In this document: positions 2,281-63,976 of the stretch, in pieces
Layout of the letters: each line of letters begins with the position of its first letter
Position numbering within the stretch: position 1 is the stretch's first letter
Source of the DNA: Chiloscyllium plagiosum
Lineage: Eukaryota
Direction: 5' to 3'
Assembly: GCF_004010195.1 (NCBI RefSeq)
Contig: NC_057718.1
Coordinates: 49,174,021 to 49,238,020, forward strand
DNA length: 64,000 nucleotides
Program-made: the position numbers and the translations under genes
The notes under the pieces: generated by a model
Seen by the model: the letters and a program-made list of their open reading frames with translations, nothing else
The model's database searches: none
What the model was told of the DNA's origin: nothing

Positions 2281-2508
2281 AGGAGAAAGTGAGGTCTGCA
2301 GATGCTGGAAATCAGAGCTGAAAATGTGTTGCTGGAAAAGCGCAGCAGGTCAGGCAGCATCCAGGGAACAGGAGAATCGACATTTCGGGCATTAGCCCTT
2401 TTTCAGGAAAAGCCCTTTCCTGAAAAAGGGCTTATGCCCGAAACGTCGATTCTCCTGTTCCCTGGATGCTGCCTGACCTGCTGCGCTTTTCCAGCAACAC
2501 ATTTTCAG
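2281..2508. mobile_element. Palindromic PLE-derived mini-insertion with an HHR-like motif in each arm
   Basis: Arms ~2316-2410 and ~2416-2510 are near-perfect reverse complements. 15 bp TSD cttgagaagatggtg at 2266-2280 and 2509-2523. Sequence matches the 3' end of the GIY-YIG element at 63076. Confidence 0.9.
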
Positions 2509-3293
2509 CTTGAGAAGATGGTGGTGAGCTGGCTTCTTGAACTGCTGCAGTCCATATGCAGTAGGTAGATCCAAATGCCATTCGGAAGGGAGGTTCAAAA
2601 TATTGACCTAGTGATACGGAATAAATGGTGATATATTTCGAAGTAAAGATGGTAAGTGGCTTAAGGGGGAACTTACAGGTGATGGTGTTCTCATATATCT
2701 GCTGTTCTTGTCCTTCTAGATGGTAGTTGTCATGAGTTTTGAAGGTGCTTTCTAAGGAGTTTTGGCAAATGTTTGCAGTGCATCTTGTAGATGATGAACA
2801 GTGTTGCTACTAAGCGTTGGTGGTAAAGGAATGGATGTTAGTGAATGCAGTGGCAATCAACCAGGCTGCTTTGTCCTGGTAGTGTTAAGCTTCTTCAGTG
2901 TTTTTGGAGCTGCACCCATCCAGGCAAGGGGGAAGTATTTCATCACACTCCTGACTTGTGTCTTGTAGATGGTGGGAAATCAGAAAGTGTGTTACTTGTT
3001 GCACTGTTCGCAGTCTTTGACCTGCTATGTTTATATAGAGAGTCCATTTGAGTTTCTGGTCAACGGTAATGCTCAGGATGTTGATAGTAGGGAATTCTAT
3101 GTGGTAATGCCATTGAATGTCAAGAGACAATGGTTAGGTTGTCTTTTATTGGAGCTGGTCATTGCCTGGCATGAATGTAACTTGCCCCTTTTCAGCACAA
3201 GCCTGGATATTGTGCAGGTCTCGTTGCATTTGAACATAAACTGCTTCAATATCTGAGGGGTCGTGAGTAGCGCTAAGCATTGTGTAATCATCA

Positions 3294-3479
3294 AGGTGGG
3301 TAAAAACAACGACTGTAGATGCTGGAACCCAGATTCTGGATTAGTGGTGCTGGAAAAGCACAGCAGTTCAACTTTGCCTGTATTCCTGATGAAGGGCTTT
3401 TGCCTGAAACGTCGATTTTACTGCACCTCGGATGCTGCCTGAACTGCTGTGCTTTTCCAGCACCACTAATCCAGAATTA
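3294..3479. mobile_element. Asymmetric palindromic PLE-derived insertion
   Basis: Inverted arms attctggattagtggtgctggaaaagcacagcagttca / tgaactgctgtgcttttccagcaccactaatccagaat. TSD tgtaatcatca at 3283-3293 and 3480-3490. Confidence 0.85.
3386..3413 (+). ncRNA. Minimal type I hammerhead ribozyme core
   Basis: CTGATGA-A-GGGC-tttt-GCCT-GAAA-CG-TC. All conserved core nucleotides are present, with a GUC cleavage triplet. Confidence 0.75.
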
Positions 3480-4249
3480 TGTAATCATCAGCAAACATTC
3501 ACAATTCTGATCTTATGATGAAATAGCTGAAGATGGTTAGGTCTAGGATACTACCCTGAGGAACCCCTGTAGTGATGAACTGGAGTTGAGATGACTGACC
3601 TTCAACAACCAGAACCATCTTCATTAGTTTGGAAGAGAAGATAAATAATGAAAACAAAATCTGTCATGGTGGGAGATGTGCTAATGGGTGGGTGAATGGG
3701 GATGTAATCTTTAGCTTTCACCTAACAGGGGTAAAATTGAGGGCTCAACTGTGCTACTTGTCCACTCAAGACAAATGTTGGAAGGTGTGAACCATTTTTT
3801 TACTTGGGGCCTGCTTAGATGGCAGGCAGTAAGATCAAATGTTTATATATTAACCCAATCAATAAGCTGGGCATGGGGTTTGGAGGAAGGGAGGTTGTTG
3901 GGGTTGATTTTGCCAGGGATTGGGTGCAGGGGATGTAATGAATGCTGGCTAGTCAGACATAGCATGGAACATAGACACATTACTGGCTGGTACAAGTGGA
4001 TGGTTAGTATTCACAGACAGTCTGCTTATTCCTGCCTGAAAATTGCATGTCAGCTCCTGCATAGTACATTCTTTGATTTCCTTATTTGTAAAAGTGTTCT
4101 ATATGCAATGCCCATGGAAATATTGCATTTTGACCAATGAGACATGCATAAGAAGCAGTTTAAAGTCCACTGGAACCATTGTGGCTTATGATAAGGATTA
4201 GTCAGTAGGACAGGTAAACTATTATTATTTAGTTTTTTTTCCTAAATCC

Positions 4250-6365: not shown

Positions 6366-6555
6366 TGTCAAAACATGTGGCACTGGAAAAGTACACCAGG
6401 CAGCATCTGAGAAGCATGACAGTCGACCCTCCAGAAGGGTTTATGCCCAAAACATCGACTGTCTTGCTCCTCTGATGCTGCCTGATCTGCTGTGCTTTTC
6501 CAGCATCTACTTTTTGACTCTGATCTCCAGCATCTGCAGTCCACACTTTCTCCTT
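6366..6555. mobile_element. Older palindromic PLE-derived insertion with degenerate HHR
   Basis: Inverted arms of the same family. TSD cctcactttag at 6355-6365 and 6556-6566. Confidence 0.8.
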
Positions 6556-6789
6556 CCTCACTTTAGCACCAAGAACCAGGCTTTTGAAACTTTGGTGATT
6601 GTGTTCTGCTGCCTGAAATTTTGCCCGCATCTACTTTCCTGTTCATTAGTCACAATGTGTTATTCATCTTGGAGTATGGTGATCTGGTGATGAAGGACAT
6701 GGATACAATAGGCAGCACTTGTCACTGTAAGACTATTATGGCCCTCACCATCCGCCCTGCCAAACTCACTGCTAAACTTTTCTTAATAT

Positions 6790-8454: not shown

Positions 8455-8700
8455 AACAGAAAGTACTGCGGATGCTGTAAATCAGAAACAAAACCAGAAA
8501 TTGCTGGAAAAGCTCAGCAGGTCTGGTAGCATCTGTGAAGAGAAATCAAAATTAATGTTTTGAGTCTGATGACCCTTCCTCAGAAGTACTTATTTATTAA
8601 CTGATTAAAATTATTTATTTACCTGATAGGTCTCGATTTTCTCCACAGATGCTGCCAGACCTGTTGAAAATTTGTAGCATTTTCTGTTTTTATGTTCAGC
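8455..8700. mobile_element. Second PLE family terminal repeat, inverted pair, degenerate HHR on minus (8554-8583)
   Basis: Matches the 3' end of the GIY-YIG element at 23030-23140. Minus strand reads CTGAGGA-A-GGGTC-atca-GACTC-aaaa-CA-TT. The right arm resumes at ~9342 after a CR1 insertion. Confidence 0.7.
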
Positions 8701-14420: not shown

Positions 14421-14449
14421 TATTCTACAGTGTGTCTCGATACAAAAAG

Positions 14450-15908: not shown

Positions 15909-16122
15909 GCTAGGACCGCAGATGCTGGAGATTAGAGTTGAGAGTGTGGTGCTGGAAAAGAACAGCAGATCAGGCAACATCCGAGGAGCAGGAAAATTGA
16001 CATTTCGGACAAAACCCATTCATCAGCAATTCTTGATGAAGGGTTTTGCCTGAAACATCGATTTTCTAGCTCCTCGGATTCTGCCGGACCTGCTGTGCCT
16101 TTCTAGCACCACACTCTCGACT
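15909..16122. mobile_element. Palindromic PLE-derived mini-insertion with two HHR-like motifs back to back
   Basis: Centre reads ...cccattcatcag-caattc-ttgatgaaggg... Perfect 15 bp TSD ctatttgcaaaatga at 15894-15908 and 16123-16137. Confidence 0.9.
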
Positions 16123-17314
16123 CTATTTGCAAAATGATACTGGAACATGGAGACATTAAATAATGTACTCCTGCCAGGCCTCTCAGTAACATACTTTCTT
16201 TCAGTTTCAGAATTTCTCAAACAGTCATCTGAAAATCCCCTCTGACTCAGTTTGGTGGGGTCAAAATATTTCATCTATTTTGTGTAGAATGTGATAACGT
16301 AACACTGTCAGGTGAACAACAACAAATGGGACGTACAACTTACAGCTTAAACTTCTTTAAAAGGAATGAGAGCAAGTTTGGATAAAAGAACAAGAAGGTG
16401 CTGAAGTTATGAATGTTTGAGGAAAAATGTTCCGTAGCCCTTTATTGGAGCATTATTGAACATAATTTAACATCAAATCAAACACAGAAATATTAGAACA
16501 AGTGACCATAAGCTCGTCAAAGAGGAATAGTCAGGTCTCGAGGTAACAGTATCTCAGCAGCTGATAAACTCAATCAGGGCAGAGTCAGGAAATGTTATGA
16601 TGGTGGAATTATGTGACCCTAATGGTAATGTAGAGCAATGGTCGGTAACCATCCCAGAGTCAAATACAACACCAAATTAGTTTAATGTCAGTTACTTTCC
16701 AGACAGAATCAGTGAGTAGGAAATAGAGTTTGTGTCAGGGATGGAACATAATGACACTTGATCTCAGTCACCTGTCACACTCATGCTCTCTGCTGTCTCA
16801 GAATATCTCGATTTGTAAACTGTTACACCTATCTTCAAAATCTTTAGTGACTTGTTTTTATCTTTGTAGCTTCCTCCATTCTACATCCCACTGAGACCCC
16901 AGTCCACCTTCAGTTCAAACCCCCTGCATCAAGTCAATTTTCATCACTACATAATTTGCAGCCTAGGTAAAAGCTCTGGAATTCCTTCAGTAGACTTGTT
17001 TACCTCATACATCCCTCCCTATCTTTGACATGCTCTTAAAGCCTGCCTCTTTGGCCAGTCATTTTGTCATTTGCCATATATTCCCTATTAGTGATTTTCT
17101 CTGCCTGAAAGCTAAATAATCAGATGTTGAGAATATTCAAGTTAGAGAAACAGGAATTTGCATCCTGTTGGAATCCAGGGATATGTGATGGTGCAGGGAA
17201 ATCTCACTGAATGGCCCACTCTCATTCCTATTTCTTATGCCCTCATGGTCTAAGATACTCCACAGGAATATCTGCCATATGATTGTTGCTCGGTGTCTTG
17301 TGGAGTATTTTAGA

Positions 17315-18740
17315 CCATAAGAATATAAGAAGAAGGAGCAAGAGTGGGCCATTCAGTAAGATAGTTTTACACTATCTCATATCCCTGGATTCTATATGTC
17401 TACAAATGTCTGTCTCTCCACTTTGAGTATGCTGATCATTGAGTTTTCAGGCATAGAGAATTCCAGAGATTCCAATTTTTTGAGTGAAGAACTTTCTCCT
17501 CCTTTCAGTTGTAAATAGTCAGCTCCTTCTGAGATGTGTGTGTACCGATTCTCAGAAAGGAGGGACTCGATGTAGTTTGGGCACATTAAATAATGTGAAA
17601 ACCAATGTGCTGAACTCTCTCCTTGTTTAGAGTCTCCCTTCAGCAGAAACATCTTGTACTCTGCCAAGTCTGTTAAAAATTTTATATGTTTCAATGAGAT
17701 CACCACTCACTCTTCTAAATTCTAGGAAATGAAGGTCAAATCCACCTCTTAAAAGACAATTAATTGGACCCTTGTTGCACTCCCTCTAATGCAAATATAT
17801 TCTTCATTAGGTAAAGAAAGCAAAACTGCACATAACTAGGCGCGTCCTCACCAAAGCAGTACATAATTAGAATTATAGAGTCATGAAGTCATACAGAACC
17901 GAAACAGACCTTTTGGTCCAACCAGTCCATGCTGACCGTAATCCCAAACTAAACTCATCCCACCTGCCTGATCTTGACCTATAACCATCCAAACCTTTCT
18001 TATTCATGTACTTACTTAAATGTATTTTAAACATTGTATCTGTACCCGCATTCACCATTCCACACATGAATCACTCTCTGTGTAAAAACATTGTCCTTCA
18101 TGTCTTTTTAAAACCTGTCTTCTCTCAGCTTAAAATATGTCCCCTAGACTTGAAATCCCCAATCCTAGGGAAAAGACACTTGCAATTCACTTTATCTATA
18201 CTTCTGATTATTTTATAAACTTCTGCAAAGTCATCTCACAACCTCCTATCTTCCAGTGAAAGAAGTCCCAGCCTATCCAACCTCTTCTGCTAACTTAAAC
18301 CCTCCATTCCTAGCAACATCCAGGTAAATCTCTTCTGAACTCTCTCCAGCTTAATAATATCCTTCCTATAATAGAACTGGACACAGTACTCTGGAAGAGG
18401 CCTCACCAACATCCTGTACAACATCAATGTAATGTCCATTCTTGACTATTACGTCTAATAATTTTGAGGCAAAAATTAACATATCATTTGCTTTCCTTTT
18501 TGCTTGTTGTATCTGCATGTTAATGCTGTGATTTACATGTGATGACACCTAAATCCTTTTGAGAACTATCATATCCCATATCTTTCCATTGTAAAAACAC
18601 TCTACCGACTAAAATTTCTCATTTTTCTTACTAAAATGGGTAACTTCATATTTTTCTATGTGAAATGTTCATATGCTATCTTCTTACCCACACATTCCAC
18701 TTGTCATTTTCACCCTTTCTGCAAATTCTTCAGTGCTCTC
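17315..18740 (-). mobile_element. Old CR1 fragment with a younger CR1 3' end (~17875-18440) nested inside
   Basis: The younger copy starts with a (atagagtc) tail on plus. The flanking older copy gives MQIQQAKRKANDMLIFA (CR1 ORF2). Confidence 0.75.
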
Positions 18741-18767
18741 TTCACAACCTTAATTTACATTATTAAC

Positions 18768-18915
18768 AGGATGTGGCACTGGAAAAGAACAGCAAGTTAG
18801 GCAATATCCAAAGAGCAGGAGAATTGTCATTTCAGGCATAAGCCCTTCATCAGGGCTTTCCAGCACCACACTAATCTTGACTCTAATCTCCAGAATCTGC
18901 AGTACCTACTTCCGC
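18768..18915. mobile_element. PLE-derived inverted mini-insertion; HHR on minus (18826-18853) with mutated cleavage site
   Basis: Minus strand reads CTGATGA-A-GGGC-ttat-GCCT-GAAA-TG-AC. It is followed by an opposite-orientation 3' end. Confidence 0.75.
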
Positions 18916-19232: not shown

Positions 19233-19361
19233 GGCGAAGGTGAATACTGCAGATGCTGGTGATCAGAGTCAAGATTAGAGTGGTGCTGGAAAAGCACAGC
19301 CCATCAGGCAGCATCTGAAGATCAAGAAAATCGATGTTTCAGGCAAAAGTCCTTCATCAGG
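19233..19361 (-). mobile_element. Single-arm PLE terminal-repeat insertion ending at the HHR
   Basis: Ends ccttcatcagg. 16 bp TSD with 2 mismatches (19217-19232 / 19362-19377). Confidence 0.8.
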
Positions 19362-20094
19362 AGTAAATGTTGACCTAACCAACAATGAATAAACAAAATG
19401 AAACTAATATGACATACTGGCAAAAGTTGTCCTAAGGGTTAAAAAAATGTTGAAACGTAGAATGTTCAGTACATCAATCAGTCCACTAATTACCCAAAAA
19501 TAAATCTGAACAGTTACTCTTCCACATGAAACCTCCCATCATTGCATTTGCTGCTTAATGTAAAGATTGATGAATTATTTCAAATATTTAAAAACATACA
19601 TAGCAGTTCGTGCAATTACATCATTGTGTCTTGTGGTAGTTTCTCAGGTTTCTTTGCATGAATTTTATTACGTGACTCAGCAGCTGCTTGAAAATCCCCA
19701 AGGAGCCCAGACACATTCTGTATTATCAGTAAGCATACCAATTTGAATGCTATAAATTCATTGACAGAATAAATCTAAAAATATTGTAAGTTGTATTTTT
19801 CAATTGCTTGCACGATATTGAGGGACCTATAAAGGAAGAGAGGAAATCAGTTAAGGTTATGAAACTCTGGGCTCATTTTTGCACATTGCTGATAGGTTAG
19901 TTTGGAAAATATATGTCCTAATTAGTTATGAAAATCATTTGCAAAATGATCAGCTTCTGTCGAAAATACAACATAATTAAAATCAAATATTCTAAGGAAC
20001 AGACTGAGAGTCATTCTTTTCATTACAGTGAAAGAAAGTGCCCATCAAAGTTGCGCACTGAAAAATTACATATGGATGATGGCTTCAGATTGAT

Positions 20095-20689: not shown

Positions 20690-20950
20690 GCCACAAAGAT
20701 GCAAGGCTCAGGCAGGAGGCTGGAAGTACACAACAAAGCAGGCAGCATCAGGAGTTGGAGAAGTCAACCTTTTGGGTAATCCTTCTTTAGGACTGGGGGT
20801 GGGTGTAGGGGGAGCTGCAGATAAAAGGGTTGGCAGGAGTAGGGTGGTGAAGTGGGTTAGGTAAAAACAGGTAGAGGGTATGACCTGGTTGGTCAATGGG
20901 AGGAATCAATCCGGTTGGTGGCAGGGAGGAGTGGAAGGGGTGGAGCATGA
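20690..20950 (-). mobile_element. Third PLE family 3' region with degenerate HHR (~20765-20792)
   Basis: gcaggcagcatcagg...aaccttttgggtaatccttctttagg followed by a G-rich 3' UTR, the same layout as 63076-63400. Confidence 0.55.
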
Positions 20951-22465: not shown

Positions 22466-23140
22466 TGTCCAGGGCCCAACAATTTTCCAGGTGAGGCAGT
22501 GACATTTCACTTATACTTCTTTCGATGTAGTCTACTGCATTCCTTGCTCACAATGCAGCTTCCTTTACATTGGCGAGGCCAAATGCATATTGGGTGATGG
22601 CTTCTTGGCTCTATCTGTGGGACTGACCCTGAACTCCCTGTGACTTGCTATTTCAATACACCATGCTGCTGTATGTCCTGGTTCTGCTGGTATGTTCAAA
22701 AGAAGCACAATGCAAGCTCAAGAAACAACACCTCATTTTTCACTTTGGCACTTTATAGCCTCGAGGTTTCAATACTGCATTCAAAAACTTCAGAAATTGA
22801 CAACATTATATCAGTTCTCATTTTACTTACATTCTCTCCACCCACCTCCAACCCCACAGTCTTGTCCTGTTTATGTCTTTTTAATTTTATTCTCAGTGGT
22901 GAGGACCTTTTCACACCTTACTTTACACCCATTTTACATTTTGTTCTCTCTTTCTCCACTATTAACAACTACTTTGTCTTTTGCACTGTCAAAAGTGTTA
23001 AAAACATTTTCCGACACCTCTCAGTTCTCACACAGGACTGAAAATGTTAACTCTGATTCTCTAACCACAGGCGCTGCCAGACCTGCTGAGTTTGTTCAGC
23101 ATTTTCTGTGTTTGTTTCAGATTTTCAGCATCTTCAGTGA
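22466..23140 (+). pseudogene. Penelope-like element remnant: GIY-YIG endonuclease plus 3' terminal repeat
   Basis: Translates to DVVYCIPCSQCSFLYIGEA (GIY-YIG with CxxC). The 3' end matches the 8455 and 46160 repeats. Confidence 0.8.
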
Positions 23141-31510: not shown

Positions 31511-31912
31511 CAGGCAATTGCTCTGATTTTCATGGTAGGAATTGTTTGTATCCAGTGAGTGGGAGAATGGAAAACTGTGTATAAATAATGGGAAATTAAT
31601 TTAAAATATGTTAACAAATGCTGATGCATGCAAATAGGCTTACTGATGAGAACTTTGTCTTGCTGTTCAACACTAGATTGGAAAAAGAGAATTTCTGCTG
31701 TCAACATTGTGAAGCTCCTTATTGCTAATCTCATGATTTTCCCAACATCTTTGCCAGTACCCACATTGTTCAGTGCCTAGGAAGATTCTGCCCATATATT
31801 TAAAATAAAAATAATCCTTACCACTCCAATTAATGTGAAATACATTATGCAAATAATTTCCATTTTAAATTGAACATTTGTGATTCTGTTTGCCGAGCTG
31901 GGAATTTGTGTT

Positions 31913-31952
31913 GCAGATGTTTCGTCCCCTGTCTAGGTGACATCCTCAGTGC
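31913..31952 (-). ncRNA. Minimal hammerhead ribozyme (left arm)
   Basis: gca-CTGAGGA-t-GTCACCT-agac-AGGGGAC-GAAA-CA-TC-tgc. Confidence 0.75.
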
Positions 31953-32720
31953 TTGGGAGCCTCCTGTGAAGCGCTTCTGTGATGTTTCCTCCGGCATTTA
32001 TAGTGATTTATATCTGCCGCTTCCGGTTGTCAGTTCCAGCTATCCGCTGCAGTGGTCGGTATATTGGGTCCAGGTCAATGTGTTTATTGATTGAATCTGA
32101 GGATGAGTGCCATGCCTCTAGGAATTCCCTGGTTGTTCGCTGTTTGGCTTGTCCTATAATAGTAGTGTTGTCCCAGTTGAACACATGTTACTTGTCATCT
32201 GAGTGTGTGGCTACTAAGGATAGCTGGTCGTGTCGTTTCGTGGCTAGTTGGTGTTCACGGATGCGGATCATTAGCTGTCTTTCTGTTTGTCTGATGTAGT
32301 GTTTTGTGCAGTCCTTGCATGGGATTTTGTACGCTACATTGGTTTTGCTCATGCTGGGTACATATATAGGACACTACATAGGTCAAACAGGAAGACAGCT
32401 AATGATCCTCATCCATGAACACCAACTAGCCACGAAACGACACGACCAGCTATCCTTAGTTGTCACACACTCAGATGACAAGCAACATAAGTTCGACTGG
32501 GGCAACACTACTATTATAGGACAAGCCAAACAGAGAACAGCCAGGGAATTCCTAGAGGCATGGCATTCATCCACAGATTCAAACTATAAACACATCGACC
32601 TGGACTCAATATACCGGCCACTGCAGCGGACAGCTGGAATTGACAACCAGAAGTGGCAGGTACAAATCACTATAAATACCGGAGGAAACATCACACAAGT
32701 GCTTCACAGGAGGCTCCCAA

Positions 32721-32760
32721 GCACTGAGGATGTCACCTGGACAGGGGACGAAACGTCTGC
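32721..32760 (+). ncRNA. Minimal hammerhead ribozyme (right arm)
   Basis: gca-CTGAGGA-t-GTCACCT-ggac-AGGGGAC-GAAA-CG-TC-tgc. Stem I is gca/tgc; predicted cleavage after C32757. Confidence 0.82.
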
Positions 32761-34416
32761 AACACAAATTCCCAGCTCGGCGAACAGAACCACAAGAATG
32801 AGCACCCGAGCTACAAACCTTCTCACAAACTTTGAACATTTGCGAATATTTTATTTATTTTATTTGACATTTTAGTAGAAGTATTATGAGGGTCAGGACT
32901 AAATTACATCTCTCTGGTTTGTCCTGCATCTGGGTTTCTCAATATATAAAAAAAATGAATGTAATCGTTAGCAATGTTTTAAAAAATTTCAATGATTGAG
33001 GTAAACAAAAGAAATGAAGATTCACCTCATATTTATAGATAGCATTATGGCACAATGATTTGATCAGTATATTGATTATTGCTCTAGGTCAACAGGAATG
33101 GTCTATAATACTTAATTTATTCTCATTACAAGTATTTTGTCTTTGTCATTTAACTGAATTTAATGTCTTATTCACTGATGAACATTTAACTGTGAAGGAG
33201 AAAACAAACAAGACCATGTTATGATCTCAGCTAATGTTATTTCTAGACAAGGCAGATCTCAGATTAAAACCCAGCTTGTGAGATCATATATTTTGTTTTG
33301 GTTTTGGATAAGCAGACTTTCATTGAAATATAAGCACCCAATGCTAAAGATTTTGTTTTAACTGAAAAACAGAAGTTTATTAGCATAAGAAATAAAAAAT
33401 AAAATAGAATAAACCAAGCTATTACAAATTCAAAGAGCTTTAATTACACAATAAAAGTATAATATATTCCTCCCCAAACAGTCGTTTATAAGTTGAAAAG
33501 AAAAACAACAGCAATTATATACTATCCAAAGCATACCTTGAATTGTACCTAAAAATACCACTCATACAATACTCACACAAGAGTCCCTACCTCTAACACC
33601 TCAAAAGGATTAAGTCACTTGTGATTTCAACTTTTAGACTGGAACTGCAGATAGCTTCTTGCTGGAGCCATTACACATCTGAGCTAAATGCATTCAGCTT
33701 TAAGTAACCTTTTCAGAGCTTTAGTTCAATTAAGAAACTAAACCTCTCTGTCAGTATGGGTGTTTCTCCTAAGCTTAATAAAAACAAGTTCCAGAAATCG
33801 TTAACAAGCATTGACACCCAATTGGTGGGTCACAAAACAGTCTAAGGTGACCAAAAACCCATTAGTGGCACGCAGAACCCATTGATGAAAGCTAAGCCTC
33901 TAAAATTCTTTTAAAACAAATCTTCCTGGCTACAAAAATGCTGAGAAGTTAAATATTAATTTCAGACACACAGGAAACCCACAAATGTGGCCTTGGTAGT
34001 TCATCCTGATGAATCATCCATTCCTCCCAGCTGGTTCTTTGGAGGGGTGAAGAGGAGTGTGGGGCTAAGAGAACATAGTCTAAGTCTGAGTTGTTGTTAG
34101 TACTGTCAAGTTGTTAACCTCTTCACATGACCCAACACCCATCTTTCCTGCCGGCATTGGCTTCCCTCCCACCAAACACTCTCTCATTGGTCCTAACAGC
34201 CCACTTGCCTTCCATCCCTGACACTGTCACTTACTACCATATCTATTCCCAACACCCACACTCCTGGTGACTCACTTGCCCCGACATCCAAACTTCTATC
34301 ACCTCTGGCCCTGACACACCCACAACTGCAAACACTATCCTGAGCATTCCATCACTTAACTGCCATCCTACCTACCTGGCTCCCTACTTACCTGGCCCCT
34401 ACTTACCTGGCACCAT

Positions 34417-37520: not shown

Positions 37521-38722
37521 ATGTGTGCACTGAGCAAGTGGGTAGAGAATCACAACAAAGATTTCAGACTTGTGTTATTTAAATCCTGGGCCATATTTAC
37601 ATATTTCAGTGAAATCCAAGTTATCTGGGTATGATATTAAAGCCAGCGGCCAAGCCTAAGGAAATTATCATTCCACCAGAACAATCATCAATATGCAGCT
37701 AGTATTGGGTTGGAGTGAAGGGGTGGAGTTTCCACAGGCAATGGAGGGAAGCATTTCTATTGTCGCAGCCAGAGTGTGAGGGGGAATAACTGGAATATAA
37801 TTGCTTTAGGTCATCCATGGACTTGGAATTACATGAAACATGCACTCATACTTCCAACTAATATTTTTATCAACACCGTCTGAAATTCATGTTTTAATGC
37901 TATTCAAAGCAATAGATTTCATTGGCATCAAGCAGTTGAATTAATATTTTATTTTAAATATAATTTATTTTAATTCATTAATTACTGTCTACTAAGAGAG
38001 TTGAGTGTGACAAGTTTCAATCATGGACTGGAGAGATTGCTAATTTATACGAACAGAGAGTTTGGCTGAGAGCCTTATCTCTTCATTGTGGCAGAACAGC
38101 TGAGTTTCACAGCTGAGTGAAACGCCAGGAGATTGTTCAGTCAATTTGAAAGGTTTGGTTAATTTTTGACTGAAAGATTTTCCATGGTTCATTCTCAAGG
38201 TCTGTGTAAATTTCAGTGAAAATCACCCATCTTTTTACAAGCAGTAAATTGTGATTGAAGTTTGATGGAAAATGTGAGACAGATCAGAATTTTAGATCTA
38301 TTTGATGATCTTGGTTAGTGTGGGTTGTTGCTAGTTTTCTGAGAAATCGACTGATTGGAATGATTAGTAGATAACGTTGCTAGTCTCAACCTAACAGGAC
38401 ATCAAACTTCATTACATTCAGTTTGTGAAAGGGCACAAGCGTAGGTTCGGACACAATCCATTACCTTGGCACAGATTTTCCGAAGAGAATATCTTTGTTG
38501 CAGCAATGTAGTTGGGAGCTGTGCTTTGGGGCCATATGGAGGACCTGATATAGCTGACTTCACAGGAACTGTGTGGGAAAGTGAAACTTCTGATGGGCAA
38601 CTACCCAGTGTCTTAAACCCACTGAAAAGGTCCCCAGCTCAGAGTTAAAGCTGGAGTCATTGGACGGCCAAGTACCCCAGAAACCTTCAGAACTGACTTC
38701 CACCCTTGATCCCCATACACCT

Positions 38723-38875
38723 GCGAAAGTGAATACTGCAGATACTGGAGATTAGAGTCAAGAGTGTGGTGCTGGAAAGGCACAGCAGGTCAGGCAGCAT
38801 CCGAGAAGCAGGAAAATCAACATTTCGGGCAAAAGCCCTTCATCAGGAATTGGCCCACTTGAACCACGCTCTTGG
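38723..38875 (-). mobile_element. Single-arm PLE terminal-repeat insertion
   Basis: Perfect 12 bp TSD ccccatacacct at 38711-38722 and 38876-38887. Confidence 0.85.
38819..38846 (-). ncRNA. Minimal hammerhead ribozyme core
   Basis: CTGATGA-A-GGGC-tttt-GCCC-GAAA-TG-TT with a perfect stem II. Confidence 0.7.
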
Positions 38876-39038
38876 CCCCATACACCTTATTGAGTGGTGG
38901 AGCAGACTAAGGGCTGAATGATTACTTCTGTTTCAATTTTGGTTCTGACTTGCTTACTTTAGTGACAAGTAAAACCTGCTCCAACTTCAGGCAAGTTATA
39001 AAACTGAAGCCCTCTGATCCAGCGATGAATACCTTCCA

Positions 39039-39262
39039 GGAGAACTTGAGGACTTCAGATGCTGCAGATCAGAGTTGAGAGTGTGGTGCTGGAAAAACAC
39101 AGCAGGTCAGGCAGCATCCAAGAGCAGGAGAATCGATGTTTTGGGCATAAGCCCTTCATCAAGAATCATTCCTAATGAAGGGCTTATGACCAAAACGTCG
39201 ATTCTCCTGCTCCTCAGATGCTCCCGAGCCTGCTGTGCATTTCCAGCACCACACTCTTGACA
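39039..39262. mobile_element. Palindromic PLE-derived mini-insertion with two degenerate HHRs
   Basis: Centre reads cccttcatcaagaatc-attcctaatgaaggg. 14 bp TSD with 2 mismatches (39025-39038 / 39263-39276). Confidence 0.85.
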
Positions 39263-43519: not shown

Positions 43520-46095
43520 ATTACAGCAGCTCCTGGTTCCAGTGTTTAACTGGAAACAGCATTCCCATCCCTTCTAGCTGCATGATTAAGTGAGTTTGTT
43601 TTTGAGAAAACTATTATATTGGTGGCAGTTGTATAGAAGGGCAGGAAAAAGAGCGGAAGGGCTATAGTCATAGAAGATTCAATTGTAAGCTGAGTAGATA
43701 GGTGGTTCTGTGGTTGAAAATGAAACTCCCAAATGGTATATTGCCTCCTAGGTGCACAGGTCAGGGATGTCTCAGATTGGTTGCAGGACATTCTGAAGGA
43801 AGATGGTGAATAGCCAGCTGTCGTGGTGCATATAGGCACCAATGATATATGTAATAAAGGGATGAGATCCTACAAGAAGAATTTAGGGAATTTGGAGACA
43901 AGTTAAAAAGTAGAACCTCAGAGGTAGGTATCTTCGGATTGCTACCAGTGCCACGTGCTAATCAGAGTAGGAATAAAAGAATAGGGAGGATGGATGAGTG
44001 GCTTGTGAGATGGTGCAAGAGGGAGGAATTCAGATTTTTGGGGCATTGGGACTGGTTCTGGGGGAGGTGGACTTGGTGTTCTGAAATGAGCCCGATCAGG
44101 TGGTTGAAGTTTTAGAAGGGGATTACTTTGAGAAAAGTGATCACAATTCCGGTAAGTATAAGAGTACTCATGGACAAAATCGAGAGTGGTCCTAAAGGAA
44201 GAGTGCAAAACTTGGGGAAGGCCAACAATAGCAAAATTCGGCAGGAGCTGGGGAATGTGAGTCAGGAGCAGTTGCTTGAGGGTACATTTGATGTGTGGTA
44301 GGTTTTTAAAAAGATGTTGATTAGAGTGCAGAACAGACAAGTCCCTTGGAAAATGGGTGATAGAAAAGGCAAGATTAGGGAACCATGGATGATTGGTGAA
44401 ATTGTGAGACTAGCTAAGAGGAAAAAGAAAGCATACATAAGGTCTAGGCGACTGAAAACAGATGAAGCTTTGGCAGAATATTGGGAAAGTATGACCAATC
44501 TGAAACGAGGAATTAAGAGAGCTAAAAGGGTTCATGAAATATCTTTAGCAACCAAGGTTAAGGAAAATCCCAAAGTTTTTTTTTTCATATATAAGGAGTA
44601 AGAGGGTAACCAGAGTTGGATTGGCCCACTCAAGGACAAAGGAGAAAAGTTATGCATGGTGTCAGAAAAAAATGGGTGAGATTCTTATTGAGTACTTTGC
44701 ATTAGTATTCACTGAGGAGAGGGACATGACACATGTTGAGGCTAGGGATAGTTGTTTGATTACTCTAGGTCAAGTCGGCATAAGGAGGGAGGACGTGCTG
44801 GGTTTTCTAAAAGGCAATAAGGTTGACAAAACCCCGTGTTCAGATGGGATATATCTCAGGTTGCTGAGGGAAGTGAAAGAGGAAATAGCTGGGGCCTTAA
44901 CAGATATCTTTGCAGCATCCTTGAACATGGGTGAGGTCCTGGAAGACTGGAGAATTGCTAATTTTATCCTCTTGTTTAAGAAGGATAGCAGGGATGATCC
45001 AGGCAATTATAGACCGGTGAGCCTGAGGTTAGTGGTAGGGAAGCTACTGGAGAGGATACTGAGGGATAGGCGCTATTTACATTTGGAAATAAATGGGCTT
45101 ATCAGCGATAGGCAACATAGTTTTGTGCAGGGAAGATCATGTCTTACCAACTTAATAGAATTCTTTAAGGAAGTGACAAAGTTAATTGATGAGGGACGGG
45201 CTGTAGATGCCATATACATGGACTTCGGTAAGATGTTTGATAAGATTCCTCAAATTAGGTTGATGGAGAAAGTGTAATCGCATGGGGTCCAGGGTGTACT
45301 AGCTAGATGGATAGAGAACTGGCTGGGCAGCAGGAAACAGAGTTGTGGTGGAGGGGAGATTCACAAAATGGAGAACTGTGACCAGTGGTATTCCACAGGG
45401 ATCCGTGTTGTGACCACTGTTGTTAGTGATATACATAAATGATCTGGAGAAAGGTATAGGTGGACTGATTAACAAGTTTTAGATGACACTAAATTTGGTG
45501 GATTAGCAGATAGTGAAGGGGACTGTCAGAGAATGCAACAGAATAAGGTAGATTGGAGAATTGGGCGGATAAATGGCAGATGGAGTTCAATATGGGTAAC
45601 TACAAGGTGATACATCTTAGAAGATCCAATTCAAGAGCGAACCATATGGCAAATGGGAAAGACCTAGGGAAAATTGATGTGCAGAGAGATCTGGGTGTTC
45701 AGGTCCATTGTACTCTCAAGGTGGCAATACAGGCTGATAGAGTGGTCAAGAAGGCAAACAACATGCTTTCCTTCATTGGATGGGGTATTGAGTACAAGGG
45801 TTGGTAGATCATGTTACAGTTGTATAGGACATTTAGAATATTGCGTACAGTTCTGGTCACCACATTACCAAAAGGATGTGGATGCTTTGAAGAGGGCGCA
45901 GAGGAGGGTCACCAGATGTTGCTTGAAATGGAAAATACTAACTCTGAAGAGAGGTTGAGTAGATTAGGATTATTGTTATTAGAAAGATGAAGGTTCAGAG
46001 GGATCTGGTTGATGTCTACAAAATCATGAGAGGCATAGACAGGGTGGATAGCAAGAAGCTTTTTCCCAGAGTAGGGGACTCAATTACTCGGGGCT
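43520..46095 (+). mobile_element. Long decayed CR1 LINE with SGNH-esterase ORF1 and ORF2 RT
   Basis: ORF1 reads IVIEDSIV...VVVHIGTND. ORF 44621-45277 reads PGNYRPVSL...GRSCLTNLIEFF...YMDFGKMFDK. Confidence 0.93.
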
Positions 46096-46159
46096 GTAAT
46101 TTTCTTTGTTCTTTGTTGTCTCTTTAACAACAGGCAAGATAAATAGACAAGGGACAGAA

Positions 46160-46256
46160 TCAAACACAGAAATTGCTGGGAAAGCCAATAGTTCTGGTAG
46201 CATTTGTGGAAAGAAATCAGAGTTAATGTTTCAGGTTGAGTGACCCTTCCTCTGGA
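46160..46256 (-). mobile_element. Second-family PLE terminal repeat ending at a degenerate HHR (46225-46254)
   Basis: Matches 8490-8585. Minus strand reads CAGAGGA-A-GGGTC-actc-AACCT-GAAA-CA-TT. Confidence 0.65.
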
Positions 46257-47989
46257 TACTCAGACAGAATACAGACCTGACTCCAGCAACGTTCACTGCA
46301 ATCTCTCCCAGCTTTCAAGTTTGGGTCCTATGACATGTTTTAGGCTTAGGTTTAGCATTTCCAATGGGTCAAATACAGGTTTTTGGCAGTTACCCAATAT
46401 GTCACTCCTAATTTGATTCACTATGCTGCTGAATGTGTCCCCTGCTGAAGTAGATCATGCTGAACTTGCTTCCTATTCAAAATCAGGTGTAACATTGTCC
46501 ACTTTGTGGCCTGTAGCATTTTTGCCATATAAGGGTGATATTTTCTTCTAAAATATTCCACAACATTTAATTATTGAACACATGATTGAAGCTTATTGTA
46601 AGTGTGCTCAGCCAAGATAAACACAATGTGTAATCTTTCCATCAGGCTTTATTTATATCCGTACTGTGGCATGTTCTTAAATATTGGGTACTTCTTAGCT
46701 TTCATTGCTCACTTGAGAACTTAACCGCTTAGAGTAAGTGTTCATGTATGTTTGCCAATTCAGATTTCATTGTATGGTTTGAACTTGCACAAGTTGTACT
46801 GCATTAGTAGTCTTGAATCGCTATTTTATGCAGTTTTGATGAATTATTGGAACACAGAACTCCCCTTGCACAAACCAATGTAGCTGTACTATTGTTATGG
46901 CTGCTCCCACATGAAGTTGGTCCAAGCAGCAAATATTCAGACCTAGGATTACCAACTTGGATATATTTAGAGAGATTTACCTTCTGACATATGATCACAA
47001 TGGGAACTGTGACTGACATCCCCTCTATTTGAATCTGACCTACGTGCAAGTCCTAACACAGGGACAGCTGTGCCTGTTGCTGAGAAAGCTTCCAAAACAT
47101 TGAACTTTTATGTATCTACATCCTGAATCTTTTTACTCAGCTGCATCAAATTGTCCTTCGCTCCTCAGTTTTGAGATGACACAGAAACGTTCGCCACATG
47201 CTTGACTTCTCTGCTGGTTTCCTGTTGTTACCCAATCTCTGCTTCTTTTACAATCCAGTAAGACAAGCAGACGAGGTATTAATAGTCCAACAACTGGTAT
47301 ATTCATTGCAGATGATCAGGGATCAGTGTACAGATAGGCCATCTCAAAGTATCTGAAGCTGATCTTCTAGTCCCTCAAGGTAAATATTAAAAGCCTCCTG
47401 TAAATTGTCAACATTAGTAGTCACAGTAGCCAGAATAATTACACTGGCGCATGGGCCAACTGTTTTCTGCAACTCCCTTCGAGATGGTCACTTACTTTCT
47501 CCACAGCAGATTGAGGTTCCAGAAACCCTAATATATGTACCGATGTTGAATCTGAACTGATTTGTTTTCTGTACCAGTTGATTTAGGGAACATTGATTTG
47601 TGAAGGATTTCATAAAGTACTTCTGACAAACTTCATCCTGTCCATATATGCACCAGTAGGGAGGTGAACAAGTGAGTTCTTATAGCAGATGCACCTTTAG
47701 CCTGAGTCCACTCTTCCTCATGTTGCTGCTTTAATGTGGCCATCTATGGTTCTTGCTTTGTTTCTGGCATATGTAGATAATTTCAATTTGGGCCCTGGAG
47801 CAATATCTACAAATTAGATCAATAAATTCAGGTATAGGGTTTCTTATTTATTGAGGAAAACTGTAATATACATCAGGAGAACATTGATTGGAAAGTGAGG
47901 AGGCAAATGATAAATATATTCTAATACAATGAAGTTTAAAGTAATACTGTTAGTCAACCAAGAGTGCAGAATTTGATATTTCTGTTATA

Positions 47990-48720
47990 AAAAGCACATT
48001 ATGTGAAAGCTTTTTGCCTTGCATTCTTTAGAACAATTCACAAGAATTCATGGGGAAAACCAACATTTTGAGTGATGAGAGGAGAGTGCTAATCGATAGA
48101 CAAGTGGACTCTGATTGGTAGAGACATTGACATGGAAAATGCACCCATTAATGTTGATTGACAGTTTACTGACAAGCTTTGTTTGATTTTTAAACTAGGA
48201 ATTTAACTCTGATTTGTCAGGACAGATTCCTGAGAATCACACCAGTGAAGGGCTGTCATCTATTTTGTTGAGTTGACGCAGGTGCTGTGCATGTACATGT
48301 TCTTTCTAACTGCAAAGAACAAGGCTCTCTATATTAATAAATCTAGTTTCCAGTACACAAATGTGCTGTACTGTAAACCTGACTGACAATCCTAAATTAG
48401 TGTAAGTGTAATTCTTTGTAAACCCAGGATTATCCAGCAGATGTGCCTATCTGCAAAATTATTCTTAACGCTTGATACTGTGTTGTGTGTGTTACAAGCA
48501 GGGGTCGGTTGGTTACAATCAGTACCTTGTTGCTGCAAACAGCCAAGAGATACACTGTATAATATGATCTGCCAGTATTTATGATGGCCTACATATCTTG
48601 TTTCACACCTACACTGAAGTTCAGCTCCTACATTATACATTTTTATGATAGGCACAATATCTTTTTGACTTGATAGCATCATCCTGTGAGTGGTATATAC
48701 TACTGCTACATAACTGAGCA
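47990..48720 (-). pseudogene. Old Penelope-like element (further family), GIY-YIG remnant
   Basis: ORF 48392-48865 contains SSQKDIVP...NVGAELQCRCETRYVG (VY..C.C...YVG). The 3' UTR runs to ~47990. Confidence 0.65.
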
Positions 48721-55350: not shown

Positions 55351-55374
55351 GTTTATGAATATGACATCTCCTAA

Positions 55375-55660: not shown

Positions 55661-55707
55661 TTGGAGCTGAGGATAGGAGAAAGTGGATTGGCTGTGCTGT
55701 AAGCAAG

Positions 55708-56110
55708 TAGGCAAAAGTGAGTACTGCAGATGCTGGAGATTACAGCCAAAATTAGAGTAGTGCTGGAAAAGCACAGCAGGTCAGGCAGCATCTGAGGCGC
55801 AGGAACATTGATGTTTTGGGCAAAAGTCCGAAAGTCCACAAAAATGACTTAATGCTTCCAGTTGCCTGCAAATTCAACACTCCACCTTGTTCCCTGGCCA
55901 ACATTTCTGTCTCAGGCCTGCTGCAGTGTTCCAGTGAGCCTCAGCACAAGCTTGAAGAACAACATCTCATTTTACACTGGGGGACCCTGCAACCTCTGGA
56001 ACTCAACATCATATTCAATAATTTTAGAGCCTGACTACATCCTTCCATGTTTTTAATTCAAACCCTCGCCCTGGTCCTGTCATGACATGCATTATTTTCA
56101 GCATAGCCTA
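55708..56110. mobile_element. PLE terminal repeat (minus, 55708-55829) abutting a plus-strand GIY-YIG C-terminal fragment
   Basis: ORF 55816-56034 PVACKFN...KLEEQHLILHWGTLQPLELNIIF matches the PLE endonuclease C-terminus. Confidence 0.75.
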
Positions 56111-56873
56111 CCCATTCTGTCCAACTCTCTGCTCTCATTATCACTTATGCAGCTTTACTTAAGTCCTGGCCAGTTGTCAGTAATTTCTGTTTTTGTTCCA
56201 AAAGAGCCCCCCCGTGGAATCCCAGTCCTTCCAGAACTGGTAAAGTCAACTGATCAGCCCTCTGGCTTTAAGGGAAAAGAGCATGCTTTCTAATTTTGCC
56301 TGAATTAGTGCAGCTTAAATAACAGTCAAGAAGCTTGACAGCATCAGAACATATCTGCCTGCTAGTTTGGCACTACATGCTCAAACATTCACTCCCTCCA
56401 CCACCGATGCTCAGTGCAGCCACATGTACCATCTGCAAAGTGCACAGCAGAAATTTACCAAGGATCCTTAGACAACACATTCTAAATTCACAATCACTAA
56501 CATCTGGAAGGACAAGACTCTCAGGTACATGGAACATCACCCCCACCTGCAAGTTTCCCTCCAAGCCACATAGCACACTGACTTGGAAACATATCATCAT
56601 TCCTTTACTTCAAAATGAAGCACGGTGGTTCAATGGTTAGCATTGCTGCCTCACAGCGCCAGGGACCTGGGTTCGATTCCAGACTCAGGCGACTATCTGT
56701 GTGGAGTTTGCACATTCTTGTGTCTGTGTGGCTTTCCTCCTGGTGTTCCAGTTTCCTTCCACAGTCCAAAGGATGTGCTGGTCAGGTGGTTTAGCCATGC
56801 TAAATGCCTCATAGTGTCTCGGAATCTGTAAGTTAGGTTGATTAGCCAGAGGGAATGCAGGATTATAGGGATT

Positions 56874-57892
56874 AGATTTGTGAAGGGTAGGTCTTGCCTT
56901 ACAAGTCTTTTTGAATTCTTTGAGGAGGTGAACAAGCATGTGGATGTAGTGTACATGGATTTTAGTAAGGCATTTGATAAGGTTCCCCATGGTAGGCTTA
57001 TGCGGAAAGTCAGGAGGCATGGGATAGAGGGAAATTTGGCCAGTTGGATAGAAAACTGGCTAACCGGTCGAAGTCAGAGAGTGGTGGTAAATGGTAAATG
57101 TTCAGCCTGGAGCCCGGTTACAAGTGGAGTTCCGCAGGGATCAGTTCTGGGTCGTCTACTTTTTGTCATTTACATAAATGATTTGGATGCGAGCATAAGA
57201 GGTACAGTTAGTAAGTTTGCAGATGACACCAAAATNNNNNNNNNNNNNNNNNNNNNNNNNNNNNNNNNNNNNNNNNNNNNNNNNNNNNNNNNNNNNNNNN
57301 NNNNNNNNNNNNNNNNNNNNNNNNNNNNNNNNNNNNNNNNNNNNNNNNNNNNNNNNNNNNNNNNNNNNNNNNNNNNNNNNNNNNNNNNNNNNNNNNNNNN
57401 NNNNNNNNNNNNNNNNNNNNNNNNNNNNNNNNNNNNNNNNNNNNNNNNNNNNNNNNNNNNNNNNNNNNNNNNNNNNNNNNNNNNNNNNNNNNNNNNNNNN
57501 NNNNNNNNNNNNNNNNNNNNNNNNNNNNNNNNNNNNNNNNNNNNNNNNNNNNNNNNNNNNNNNNNNNNNNNNNNNNNNNNNNNNNNNNNNNNNNNNNNNN
57601 NNNNNNNNNNNNNNNNNNNCCCCGGGTACAACAGAGCGTTACAAGGGGACATAAATTTAAGGTAAAGGGTGGAAGGTATAGGGGGGATGTCAGGGGTAGG
57701 TTCTTTACCCAGAGAGTGGTGGGGGCATGGAATGCGCTGCCTGTGGGAGTGGTAGAGTCAGAATCATTGGCGACCTTTAAGCGGCAATTGGATAGGTACA
57801 TGGATGGGTGCTTAAGCTAGGATAAATGTTCGGCACAACATCGTGGGCCGAAGGGCCTGTTCTGTACTGTATTGTTCTATGTTCTATGTTCT
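56874..57892 (+). mobile_element. Young CR1 RT fragment spanning the assembly gap
   Basis: Uninterrupted frame GRSCLTSL...[11 protein letters not shown]...GVPQGSVLG...FADDTK; (gttctat)n tail. Confidence 0.92.
57236..57619. other. Assembly gap (384 N)
   Basis: Run of N. Confidence 1.
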
Positions 57893-60734: not shown

Positions 60735-61570
60735 TAGAGTCATAGAGTCATAGAGATGTACAGCACAGAAGCAGACCCTTCGGTCCAACCCGTCCGTGCC
60801 GACCAGATAGCCCAACCCAATCTAGTCCCACCTGCCAGCACCTGGCCCATATCCCTCCAAACCCTTCCTATTCATATACCCATCCAGTTGCCTTTTAAAT
60901 GTTGCAATTGTACCAGCCTCCAACCCTTCCTCTGGCAGCCCATTCCACACACACACCATCCTCTGCATTAAAAGGTTGCCCCTTAGGTCTCTTTTATATC
61001 TTTGCTCTCTCTCACCCTAAACCTATGCCCTCTAGTTCTGGACTCCCCCACCCCAGGGAAAAGACCTTGTCAATTTTCCTTATCTATGCCCCTCATGATT
61101 TTATAAACCTTTATAAGGTCACCCCCTCAGCCTCCGACACTCCAGGGAAAACAGCCCTAGCGTATTCAATCTCTCCCTATAGCTCAAATCCTTCAACTCT
61201 GGCAACATTCTTGTAAATCTTTTCTGAATCCTTTCAAGTTTCACAATATCCCTCCGATAAGAAGGAGACCAGAATTGCACGCAATATTCTAAAAGTAGCC
61301 TAACCAATGTCCTGTACAGCCACAACATGACCTCCCAATTCCTGTACTCAAGCATAGCATAACAAACGCCTTCTTCACTTTGTTCAGCAACACTCCCTAG
61401 GACCTTACTATTAAGTGTATAAGTCCCACTAAGTTTGCTTTCCCAAAATGCAGCACCTCGCATTTATCTAAATTAAACTCCATCTGCCACTTCTTAGCCC
61501 ACTGGCTCATCTGATCAAGATCCTGTTGCAATCTGAGGTAACTTTCTGTGCTGTTGACTAAACCTCCAAT
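60735..61570 (-). mobile_element. CR1 3' fragment
   Basis: LYRTLVRLLLEYCVQFWSPSYRRDIVKLERIQKRFTRML; (atagagtc)n tail. Confidence 0.93.
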
Positions 61571-61699
61571 AAAATCAAAATCTAAATTTGAAAAATGTGT
61601 ACCCAGCTTCAGCTGCTCACTGAATGAATGGATCAGCTTGAGTCACAGATGACAAAACTAAGGTGCGCATAAATGGTGGGCAGAATCATAGATAGAAGT

Positions 61700-63075
61700 T
61701 ATGTGGTCACCCCCAAGGTACAGGAAGATGGATGAATGACTGCTGGACAGGGCAGGCAGTCAATACAGGAGTCCCCTGCAGCTGTCCCCCTGTCAAACGG
61801 GTCTTCCATTTGGGATACCGATGAGGGGGTTGGCCCATCAGGTGACAGCAGCAATAGCAGCCAGAGCAGTGGCACCATGGCTGGCTCTGCTGTACAGAAT
61901 GAAGGGTCAAAGTTTAGTAGAGCAACAGTAATTGGAGATTTGATAGTCAGGAGTGCAGATAGGTGCTTCTGTGGCTGGGAGAGAGACACCAGGATGGAAT
62001 GATACCTCCCTGGTGTCAGGGTCATGGATGTCTCTGAGTGGGTAAAAAGCATCCTGAAACGGGAGGGTGAACAGACAGAAGTCATTGCCCATATTGACAC
62101 AAATGGCATAGCTTGAACCAGTGACACGGTCCTGCAACGACAATTCAGGGGGCTAAGTTGTAAACTAAAAAATAGGACCTCTTGGGTAGTAATCCCAGGA
62201 TTATTCCCTGTGCCATTACTGAGGCTAGGAATAGAGACAAAGTACAACTGAACACGTGACTGAAGAGCTAGTGTAGGGGGAGGCCCTAAGCTATGTGGAT
62301 CACTGAGATGGTGGGATGTGAACAAGAAGGACTGGTTGCTCCTAAACTGGAGGAGCATGGATATCCTGTCAGGGAGGTTTGATACTGCCATTCAGGAGGG
62401 TTTAAACTGGTCTTGCCGGGGGGGGGGTGGGAACCGGAGCAGCAGATCAATAAGTATAGAGACTGCGGAAGAGTGTAAGGCAAATAAAGCTAAGAGGAAG
62501 AGCAGTCAGGGAGAGGTTGCTGAGCTCAGTGGAACTGGAGGCTTGGACTATATTTGCTTCAATGCAAGAGGTATAACAGGTAAAACAGATGAACTTAAAG
62601 CCTGGATTTATGCATGCAATTGTAATGTTGTTGCTGTTACACTGACATGGTTGAAAGAGGGACAGGATTAGCAGCTTAATGTTCCAGTATATCATGTTTT
62701 AGATGAGATAGAGAAGGAAGCAAAAGCGGGGAGTTGCATTACTTGTTAGGAAGCTGTGTTGAGGAAGGACACCCTGGGGGGATATCTTGTAGCAAGACAT
62801 TATGGGTTGAGCTCAGGAATAGAATGTGAGCAATCACAATACTGGGATTGTACTACAGACCTCCCAGCTGCCAGGAGGAGATACAGGAAGAGATGTATAC
62901 AGTAGTTAGATTCTGCAAAGATCTGAAAATTACAGGATTATTGAGGGAGTTGATTTTAACCTGTCCCATATTGACTGGAACTCCCTTAGTGCTGAGGTTT
63001 AGGTGAGGAGCAATTTGTTAGGTGTGTCCAGGAGGGTGTTTTGAAACAGTATGTGAATAGTCTAATGAGGGAAGG
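61700..63075 (+). mobile_element. CR1 5' portion: ORF1 SGNH esterase and ORF2 APE endonuclease start
   Basis: ATVIGDLIVR...HIDTN in ORF1; ICFNARGITGKTDELKAWI, GGVAL and YYRPP in ORF2. Confidence 0.85.
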
Positions 63076-63976
63076 GTCAAGATTAGAGTGGTGCTGGAAA
63101 TGCACAGCACATCATGCAGCATCCGAGGAGCAGGAAAATTTACGTTTCAGGCAGGAGCCCTTCATCAGGAGTGAGGCTGGAAGCCTTGGGGGTGGAGAGA
63201 TAAATGGGAGAGTGTGGGGCTTGGGAGAAGGTAGCTGGGAGTGCAATAGGTGGATGAAGGAGGGAGTAAAGGTGATATGTCAGAGAGCAGGGTGGAGCAG
63301 AAGGTAGATTGACAGGTGGGACATGTCATGAGGATGGTGCTGAGCTGGAAGTTTGGAATTGGGGTAAGGTGGGGGGAGGGGAAATGAGGAAACTGGTGAA
63401 GTCCACATTGATGGGGTTGAAGGGTTCCAAGGCGGAAGATGAGGCGTTCTTCCTGCAGGTGTCAGGTGGTGAGGGAGTGGCAGTGGAGGATGCCCAGGAC
63501 CTGCATATCCTCGGCAGACTGGGAGGGGGATTTGAAATGTTTGGCCGCGAGGCGGTGGGGTTATTTGGTGTGGGTATCACGGAGATGTTCCCTGAAGTGC
63601 TCTGCGAGAAGGCGCCCAGTCTCCCCAATGTAGAGGAAACCGCATCGGGAGCAATGGATACAATAAGTGACATTTGTGGAAGTGCAGGTGAAATCTCAAT
63701 GGATGTGGAAGGCTCCTTTGAGGCCTTAGATGGAGGTGAGGCGGTGGGGAGGTGTGGGTGCAGGTTTTGCAATTCCTGCGGTGGCAGGGGAAGGTGCCAG
63801 GAGGGGATGGTGCGTTGTTGGGGGGCGTGGACCTGACCAGGTAGTCAAGGAGAGAACGGTCTTTGCCGAAAGCGGATAGAGGTGGGGAGAGAAATGTGTC
63901 CCTGATGGTGGGGTCCATTTGTAGGTGGCGGAAATATTGGCAGATAATGCGGTTTATGCGGAGGTTGGTGGGGTGG
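63076..63976 (-). pseudogene. Penelope-like element 3' part: GIY-YIG endonuclease, 3' UTR and HHR-bearing terminal repeat
   Basis: PGTFPCHRRNCKTC and TNVTYCIHCSRCGFLYIGETGRLLAEHFREH. Its 3' end is the same family as the mini-palindromes. Confidence 0.9.
63141..63168 (-). ncRNA. Minimal hammerhead ribozyme core
   Basis: CTGATGA-A-GGGC-tcct-GCCT-GAAA-CG-TA (GUA triplet). Confidence 0.72.

Follow-up and report, generated by a model that had tools for sequence, protein, structure and literature searches.

What are the roughly twenty hammerhead ribozyme motifs dispersed over 64,000 nucleotides (nt) of the Chiloscyllium plagiosum genome (contig NC_057718.1, positions 49,174,021 to 49,238,020; this whole stretch is called the window), and how did they come to be there? 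An earlier note, made from the sequence alone, had read them as short Penelope-derived units spreading like a short interspersed element (SINE) or retrozyme family and placing self-cleavage sites in any transcript crossing the region. The Penelope origin and the short non-coding form are borne out, the SINE or retrozyme family and the field of cleavage sites are not. The motifs are almost certainly debris of ordinary Penelope-like elements (PLEs). They are probably the end modules of several autonomous PLE families, most of the short copies (stubs) being dead by-products of internally primed reverse transcription that ran off the 5' end of the element's mRNA.

A PLE end module, a minimal hammerhead followed by a tail, is present at 20/20 of the sites, which belong to at least four PLE families. 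The hammerheads are of the minimal type I with a palindromic stem III and occur at about one per 3 kb, mainly in short non-coding units, as the earlier note had it. The profile search (six profiles, five of them seeded outside the window) recognised 23 modules in the window, namely 16 of family A, 4 of C, 2 of B and 1 of E, the three beyond the listed twenty being partial inverted arms at 3370, 6433 and 8627. The twenty motifs amount to 16 insertions, four inverted pairs having been counted twice, and the minus-strand coordinates of the earlier list were the low end of the motif (31913 corresponds to core position C3 at 31949). All 11 core letters are kept in 7/20 motifs and not in the five claimed before, the additions being 16026 and 19360; the core is broken or absent in the other 13/20. 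Full integrity, with the ACGT palindrome and C17 retained as well, is limited to 3386 and 32724; 63168 has its core letters and has lost stem I. The weakest site is 48010, whose profile was seeded on itself; its support consists of a decayed endonuclease-like frame upstream and of four weak matches at other sites (E 2e-4 to 0.65). The insertions, with positions in the window, are as follows.

2281 to 2509, both strands: family A (putatively Neptune-type) inverted stub pair, long tail left and short tail right; both cores G8A; 15-nt target duplication
3300 to 3477 (ends approximate), plus strand: family A stub whose minimal hammerhead (C3 at 3386) is intact; short inverted long-tail arm; target duplication
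6366 to 6555 (ends approximate), plus strand: family A stub without the 5' half of the core; inverted arm; target duplication
8455 to 8700 (ends approximate), minus strand: module of the older family C, with G12A; part of an inverted arm at 8627-8690
15915 to 16125, both strands: inverted pair of family A stubs in which both arms stop at -4; 16026 (minus) core intact with stem II broken, 16033 (plus) C3U; 15-nt target duplication
18770 to 18910 (ends approximate), minus strand: family A stub (C3 at 18853, U16.1A) with a short inverted long-tail arm at its head
19235 to 19364, minus strand: single family A stub that stops at -4, with an intact core (C3 at 19360), a weakened stem II and a target duplication
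20716 to 20840 (ends approximate), minus strand: older A-related module (C3 at 20790), G5A and G12A
23020 to 23135, plus strand: family C module truncated inside stem II
31878 to 32845, both strands: two 5'-truncated copies of family B (putatively Poseidon-type) as an inverted pair, with the C-terminal end of the endonuclease; of their cores, at 31949 (minus) and 32724 (plus), the second is fully intact
38722 to 38850, minus strand: single family A stub that stops at -4; its core (C3 at 38846) is intact, with U17
39038 to 39258, both strands: inverted pair of family A stubs; each core is broken and carries G12A
46150 to 46258, minus strand: family C module with decayed core
47960 to 48700 (upstream end approximate), minus strand: family E decayed PLE 3' end; hammerhead remnant near 48030, broken endonuclease-like frame
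55708 to 55829, minus strand: family A long-tail module truncated inside stem II
63075 to 63976, minus strand: family A long copy; its zinc-finger linker and GIY-YIG frame is broken, its 3' untranslated region (UTR) contains TATA-like and initiator-like motifs, and its hammerhead (C3 at 63168, A17), which has lost stem I, is followed by a short tail

With a strict descriptor (core, stem II of at least 3 pairs, stem I of at least 2 pairs) the window gave 5 matches, against a mean of 0.37 (maximum 2) in 30 dinucleotide shuffles. Genome samples totalling 1.27 Mb came from chromosome-scale contigs, in 132 stretches of 10 kb set at round coordinates, and the descriptor returned 62 matches in 885 kb of them versus 3 in shuffled samples. 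A search of the window against Rfam returned no hammerhead family up to E 10. A long imperfect hairpin at 17200-17363 has a weak Rfam match and bears no relation to the hammerhead modules.

The autonomous parents are recognisable for part of the families. The family A copy at 63168 continues upstream into a broken frame of a zinc-finger linker and GIY-YIG endonuclease, and at least 39 further matches of 850-900 nt exist; a full-length family A copy was not recovered, just the two ends of the element. In family B, locus L059 carries an inverted arm followed by a pseudo-long terminal repeat (pLTR), an open reading frame (ORF) and a second pLTR, the partial tandem with an inverted truncated copy expected of an endonuclease-bearing (EN+) PLE; its frame joins reverse transcriptase and endonuclease, with the ATG at the start of stem II. 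A reverse transcriptase with a C-terminal GIY-YIG endonuclease, equally typical of EN+ PLEs, is present: RVT_1 matches family B copies at E 1.3e-9 and 3.5e-11, and the GIY-YIG motif, which matches Pfam at just E 0.11, was read by eye in A, B and F. The optional tail of 30-40 nt at one end and the target duplication are found as well. Families A and F have an extra zinc-finger-like motif, CxxxxCxxC, between reverse transcriptase and endonuclease, the feature that PMC8557442 gives for the Neptune clade. A and F are on this basis putatively Neptune-type, and B is putatively Poseidon-type. For families C and E no link to an intact reading frame was made, and the ORF start of family F was not recovered. 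The hammerheads have the conserved core, a stem II with a 5' bulge and a palindromic stem III (ACGT or AGCT) that define the minimal form, and the sequence of stem I differs among families and still pairs (covariation).

The family A tail (e.g. window 2465-2495) resembles a splice acceptor, with a branch-point-like CTGAC, a pyrimidine run and CAG. In the young subfamily there is no in-frame ATG until beyond the long tail, and an intron in the 5' UTR is possible.

The window is an ordinary sample of this genome. Profile searches of the genome samples counted 280 modules in a first 885 kb and 162 in 387 kb more, so that 22.1 modules would be expected in the window where 23 are observed (P=0.45), and local enrichment is not upheld. 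Extrapolated to the genome this gives ~1.2 million modules, of which ~240,000 meet the descriptor with an intact core and ~81,000 have a stem I of at least 3 bp. Family F (stem III AGCT, A17; e.g. L014, L031, L075, L080), with 56 modules in 885 kb, is absent from the window. Many reverse transcriptase-bearing fragments (RVT_1) of long interspersed elements (LINEs), which we take to be CR1/L2-like, also lie in the window at 44549-45277, 56832-57230 and in repeats, with an assembly gap of 384 N inside one such fragment (57234-57617, position approximate).

The origin of the stubs is best read from where copies end. Most of the motifs are stubs of 90-140 nt, and modules have two fixed 3' ends, at ~+88 and ~+125 from C3, which match the two priming sites and the tail of the anole Poseidon element PAc as described by Frangieh et al. 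2024 (PMC11167929). At the 5' side copies of family A stop at a wall: 53/93 at-risk ends fall in -9 to 0 and then 1/40 in -19 to -10 (in this first count 19/144 copies were censored for gaps, edges or length, and four ends were placed by hand where the alignment entered the inverted arm). A fresh sample gave 28/51 and then 3/21 in the next 10 nt, and the pooled count is 81/144 within 10 nt upstream of the core and 4/61 in the following 10 nt. Family F has a wall too (16/31 and 9/18), with a shoulder reaching -13. Among loci chosen because they carry an ORF start, which are young and near-identical, 44/67 tail-ended modules begin at -9 to +1. Joins between an ORF start and the module downstream (n=22, one behind a gap) connect the wall to variable points of the ORF start, with 13 at -8 to -1, 7 further up and 2 further down. 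The wall is used by joins at about the same rate as by ends in general, which makes it a property of cDNA ends, and since young near-identical loci and joins use it too, it is no artefact of aligning different subfamilies. The ribozyme's own cleavage point (+28 in A) was considered as an end site and shows no clear excess (5/144 at +28 to +30, 2/75, 0/67 and 1/49); an apparent cluster there in L137, L139 and L140 has a common flank and is therefore one event.

Inverted pairs follow a nearly fixed plan. Among 44 family A pairs (5 from the window), 32 join a long to a short tail, 4 are long with long, 1 short with short and 7 have a decayed end; in family F 14/15 are long with short. Target duplications flank 32/44 A pairs and 12/15 F pairs, compared with 8-10% in mismatched flanks, and single stubs with target duplications likewise end at the wall (11/23, control 6%). 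Two loci, L124 (848-1824) and L152 (1047-1803, both in element orientation), repeat the same internal join in both arms (263 to -111 and 272 to -31, respectively), as would be expected from a circular or chimeric template or from fold-back copying. In the pair at 2281-2509 the identical G8A change in both arms may reflect the same template, arm-to-arm copying or gene conversion.

The wall falls on an initiator-like A, ~30 nt downstream of a TATA-like box. Of 39 long family A copies, 34 have an initiator-like A at -4 and 34 a TATA-like box of the TTTAT type at -30 to -37; in family F TATAAA stands at -36 to -40 in 7/9 copies and an initiator-like A at -8 in 4/9. Such motifs have been described in a rotifer pLTR (PMC3846280), and Drosophila Penelope has a TATA-less internal promoter (PMC2377424). 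Public reads contain the modules in RNA of both strands; on one young copy they have loose ends at -4 and at both tail ends, and RNA depth is several hundred over the module versus at most 15 over the ORF start.

We infer, with a little less assurance than for the by-product origin as a whole, that the wall is the start of the mRNA. A promoter in the pLTR would start the mRNA just before stem I, and the element's protein would prime reverse transcription at the tail, within its own mRNA. A 5'-proximal priming site would lead to copying of the first ~100 letters and to stubs that stop at the RNA end, and a priming site at the mRNA 3' end would yield the long copies. Both nicks would be extended and the two cDNAs presumably joined head to head; alternatively, the cDNA would jump to another position on the RNA. 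Internal priming at two sites, with both nicked strands extended and uncut RNA as template, is reported for the anole element (PMC11167929). The stubs, which lack the upstream promoter-like box, are likely promoterless and dead. The strict pairing of long with short arms lies outside this scheme, and one arm may have been copied from the other.

Several points weigh against a wall at the mRNA start. The promoter motifs were counted in related copies without a chance control, the TTTAT box of family A is a weak TATA, and the initiator consensus applied to the wall A is one that we presume to hold. The poly(A) single-cell data, the only raw RNA, have no pile-up of molecule ends anywhere on the young copy. 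Family B has scattered 5' ends and no wall, in a set of ORF-selected loci with few short copies. The wall is 8-12 nt wide, and in family A it overlaps ATT, the preferred cut of the anole endonuclease. A rare variant is common to both arms in 5/32 A pairs versus 2% of control pairs (family A only), which also fits one arm copied from the other, and the near-fixed pairing of long and short arms is not explained by two independent primings, PMC11167929 having observed no strand preference.

The alternative that survives best keeps the PLE origin and sets the wall by something other than the mRNA start. An endonuclease might cut a cDNA intermediate, a protein at the hammerhead might act as a roadblock, or synthesis might prime itself by fold-back, perhaps on an antisense template, the second arm being a copy of the first. 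The family A wall indeed begins with the ATT favoured by the anole enzyme (PMC11167929), whereas that of family F is without ATT and lies 30 nt behind a TATAAA box. Palindromic junctions have been interpreted as self-priming (PMC3846280), and the near-fixed pairing and the arms that have a common internal join (L124, L152) or rare variant suit such copying. However, the single stubs with target duplications counted above also end at the wall, and a roadblock would be expected to halt the enzyme before the structure, not after it. We regard this alternative as unlikely.

Slightly more doubtful is a retrovirus-like replication of the Neptune elements by strong-stop and strand transfer, in which a tail-primed copy would run to the cap and jump to the RNA 3' end. 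Hammerhead cleavage of the downstream pLTR would leave a terminal repeat of 32 nt (-4 to +27, the ribozyme itself) as R region, the million stubs would be stranded strong-stop cDNAs, and repeated jumps would rebuild the pLTR and its promoter. Three of its elements are observed, namely the wall, 5' ends left uncut and jumps that set out from the wall; they are also compatible with priming on a read-through 3' end. If true, strand transfer would give the PLE hammerhead a job and explain the regeneration of the pLTR.

A short non-autonomous hammerhead family spreading via its own transcripts, SINE or retrozyme, was the proposal of the earlier note; it is largely refuted and we give it very little credence. 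It could appeal to the prevalence of short copies (over half), which have target duplications and a defined 5' end, to a few two-unit tandems with internal deletions (L029/L123, L124, L149) and to vertebrate retrozymes being reportedly derived from pLTRs (bioRxiv 2026.07.22.740005). The window, however, holds no tandem array with a hammerhead, the head-to-tail repeats with at least two intact hammerheads that mark a retrozyme are not found in it, and the scattered two-unit tandems elsewhere differ in their joins from locus to locus. Two of these (L029 2080-2780 and L149), ~330-360 nt long, internally deleted and with both hammerheads intact, are possible seeds of retrozyme-like units. A SINE-like family should have its own lineage and its own promoter; the stubs are without the upstream box, end at the parent's two tail sites and have no A tail, and both short and long copies occur in each of six rough A subfamilies. 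Stubs and ORF-linked copies interleave on the family A tree (50 stubs and 34 long copies, 84/160 with score of at least 70 and an end at the wall or beyond -40), the label changing 25 times versus 26.3 when shuffled (170/500 shuffles as low). The tree is weak, with 82 columns and mostly unresolved branches, which tells against our own reading of it too.

It is scarcely credible that host transcripts crossing the region are really cleaved at the dispersed motifs, even with 7/20 cores intact and modules in RNA of both strands, because 13/20 cores are broken, intact cores on the same strand are at least 3.3 kb apart, the hammerhead is the predicted lowest-energy fold in none of eight monomers (0/8), and there is no clear selection on the core among copies. 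The earlier note had set conservation of the core above the flanks as a check, and cores decay about like flanks. Core divergence in family A is slightly lower than in non-diagnostic tail columns (0.049 vs 0.066, p=0.07) and lower than in all tail columns (0.111, p=0.01), but the catalytic G12 is gone in 23% of A copies (other CpG sites 32%), intact A cores number 68/117 where 64 are expected under independent decay, and family F has no core excess. PLE hammerheads are said, in a 2017 paper, to cleave as dimers. Published minimal hammerhead monomers failed to cleave (PMC4209133), and the anole ribozyme required the element's protein and was dispensable for insertion (PMC11167929). A core that is fixed across families, next to stems that vary without losing their pairing, points to selection in active elements; it is likely that selection maintains the ribozyme only there, and that the ribozyme decays in their copies.

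Should the wall prove to be where the mRNA starts, it would place that start within a few bases, account for the SINE-like look without a SINE and offer a direct test of pLTR regeneration, for which PMC2377424 saw no obvious mechanism. The ends of about a million insertions form a usable record of the start and stop points of PLE reverse transcription. A literature search, with subscription journals and Repbase outside it, turned up nothing published on PLE hammerheads in sharks or on a wall of 5' ends at the hammerhead.

The dispersed hammerheads follow the pattern described in 2014 for metazoan PLEs (Cervera and De la Pena 2014, PMC4209133), at much higher copy number. Alike are the type I core, the extra base between 9 and 10.1, G10.1-C11.1, the palindromic 15.2-16.2 and the thousands of dispersed single motifs from truncated PLEs, some as close opposite-strand pairs. 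That paper gives ~4,000 motifs in coelacanth and 9,000 in Xenopus, compared with ~70 core-intact per Mb (the extrapolated ~240,000) here, the descriptors being different; unlike its motifs, the commonest A subfamily here has just 2 contiguous stem I pairs. PAc shares the two internal priming sites bounding a tail of 30-40 nt, the uncut RNA template and, with family B, the start codon at stem II, whereas stubs ending at the RNA 5' end and the inverted pairing of long and short arms are not described for it in the available text of PMC11167929. Non-LTR retrozymes (PMC7229834; bioRxiv 2026.07.22.740005) are likewise non-coding, PLE-related and of type I, but are described as head-to-tail repeats of 150-450 nt processed to circles, while the units in the window are single or inverted stubs with minimal hammerheads. 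The insertion unit of EN+ PLEs (PMC8557442, PMC3846280) consists of a pLTR, an inverted 5'-truncated copy and a tail on one end. Head-to-head inverted arms, the one-sided tail, target duplications, partial tandems and TATA- and initiator-like motifs (in the rotifer pLTR) recur in the shark, where, in distinction to that unit, both arms mostly fall short of the pLTR in length and share one stopping point.

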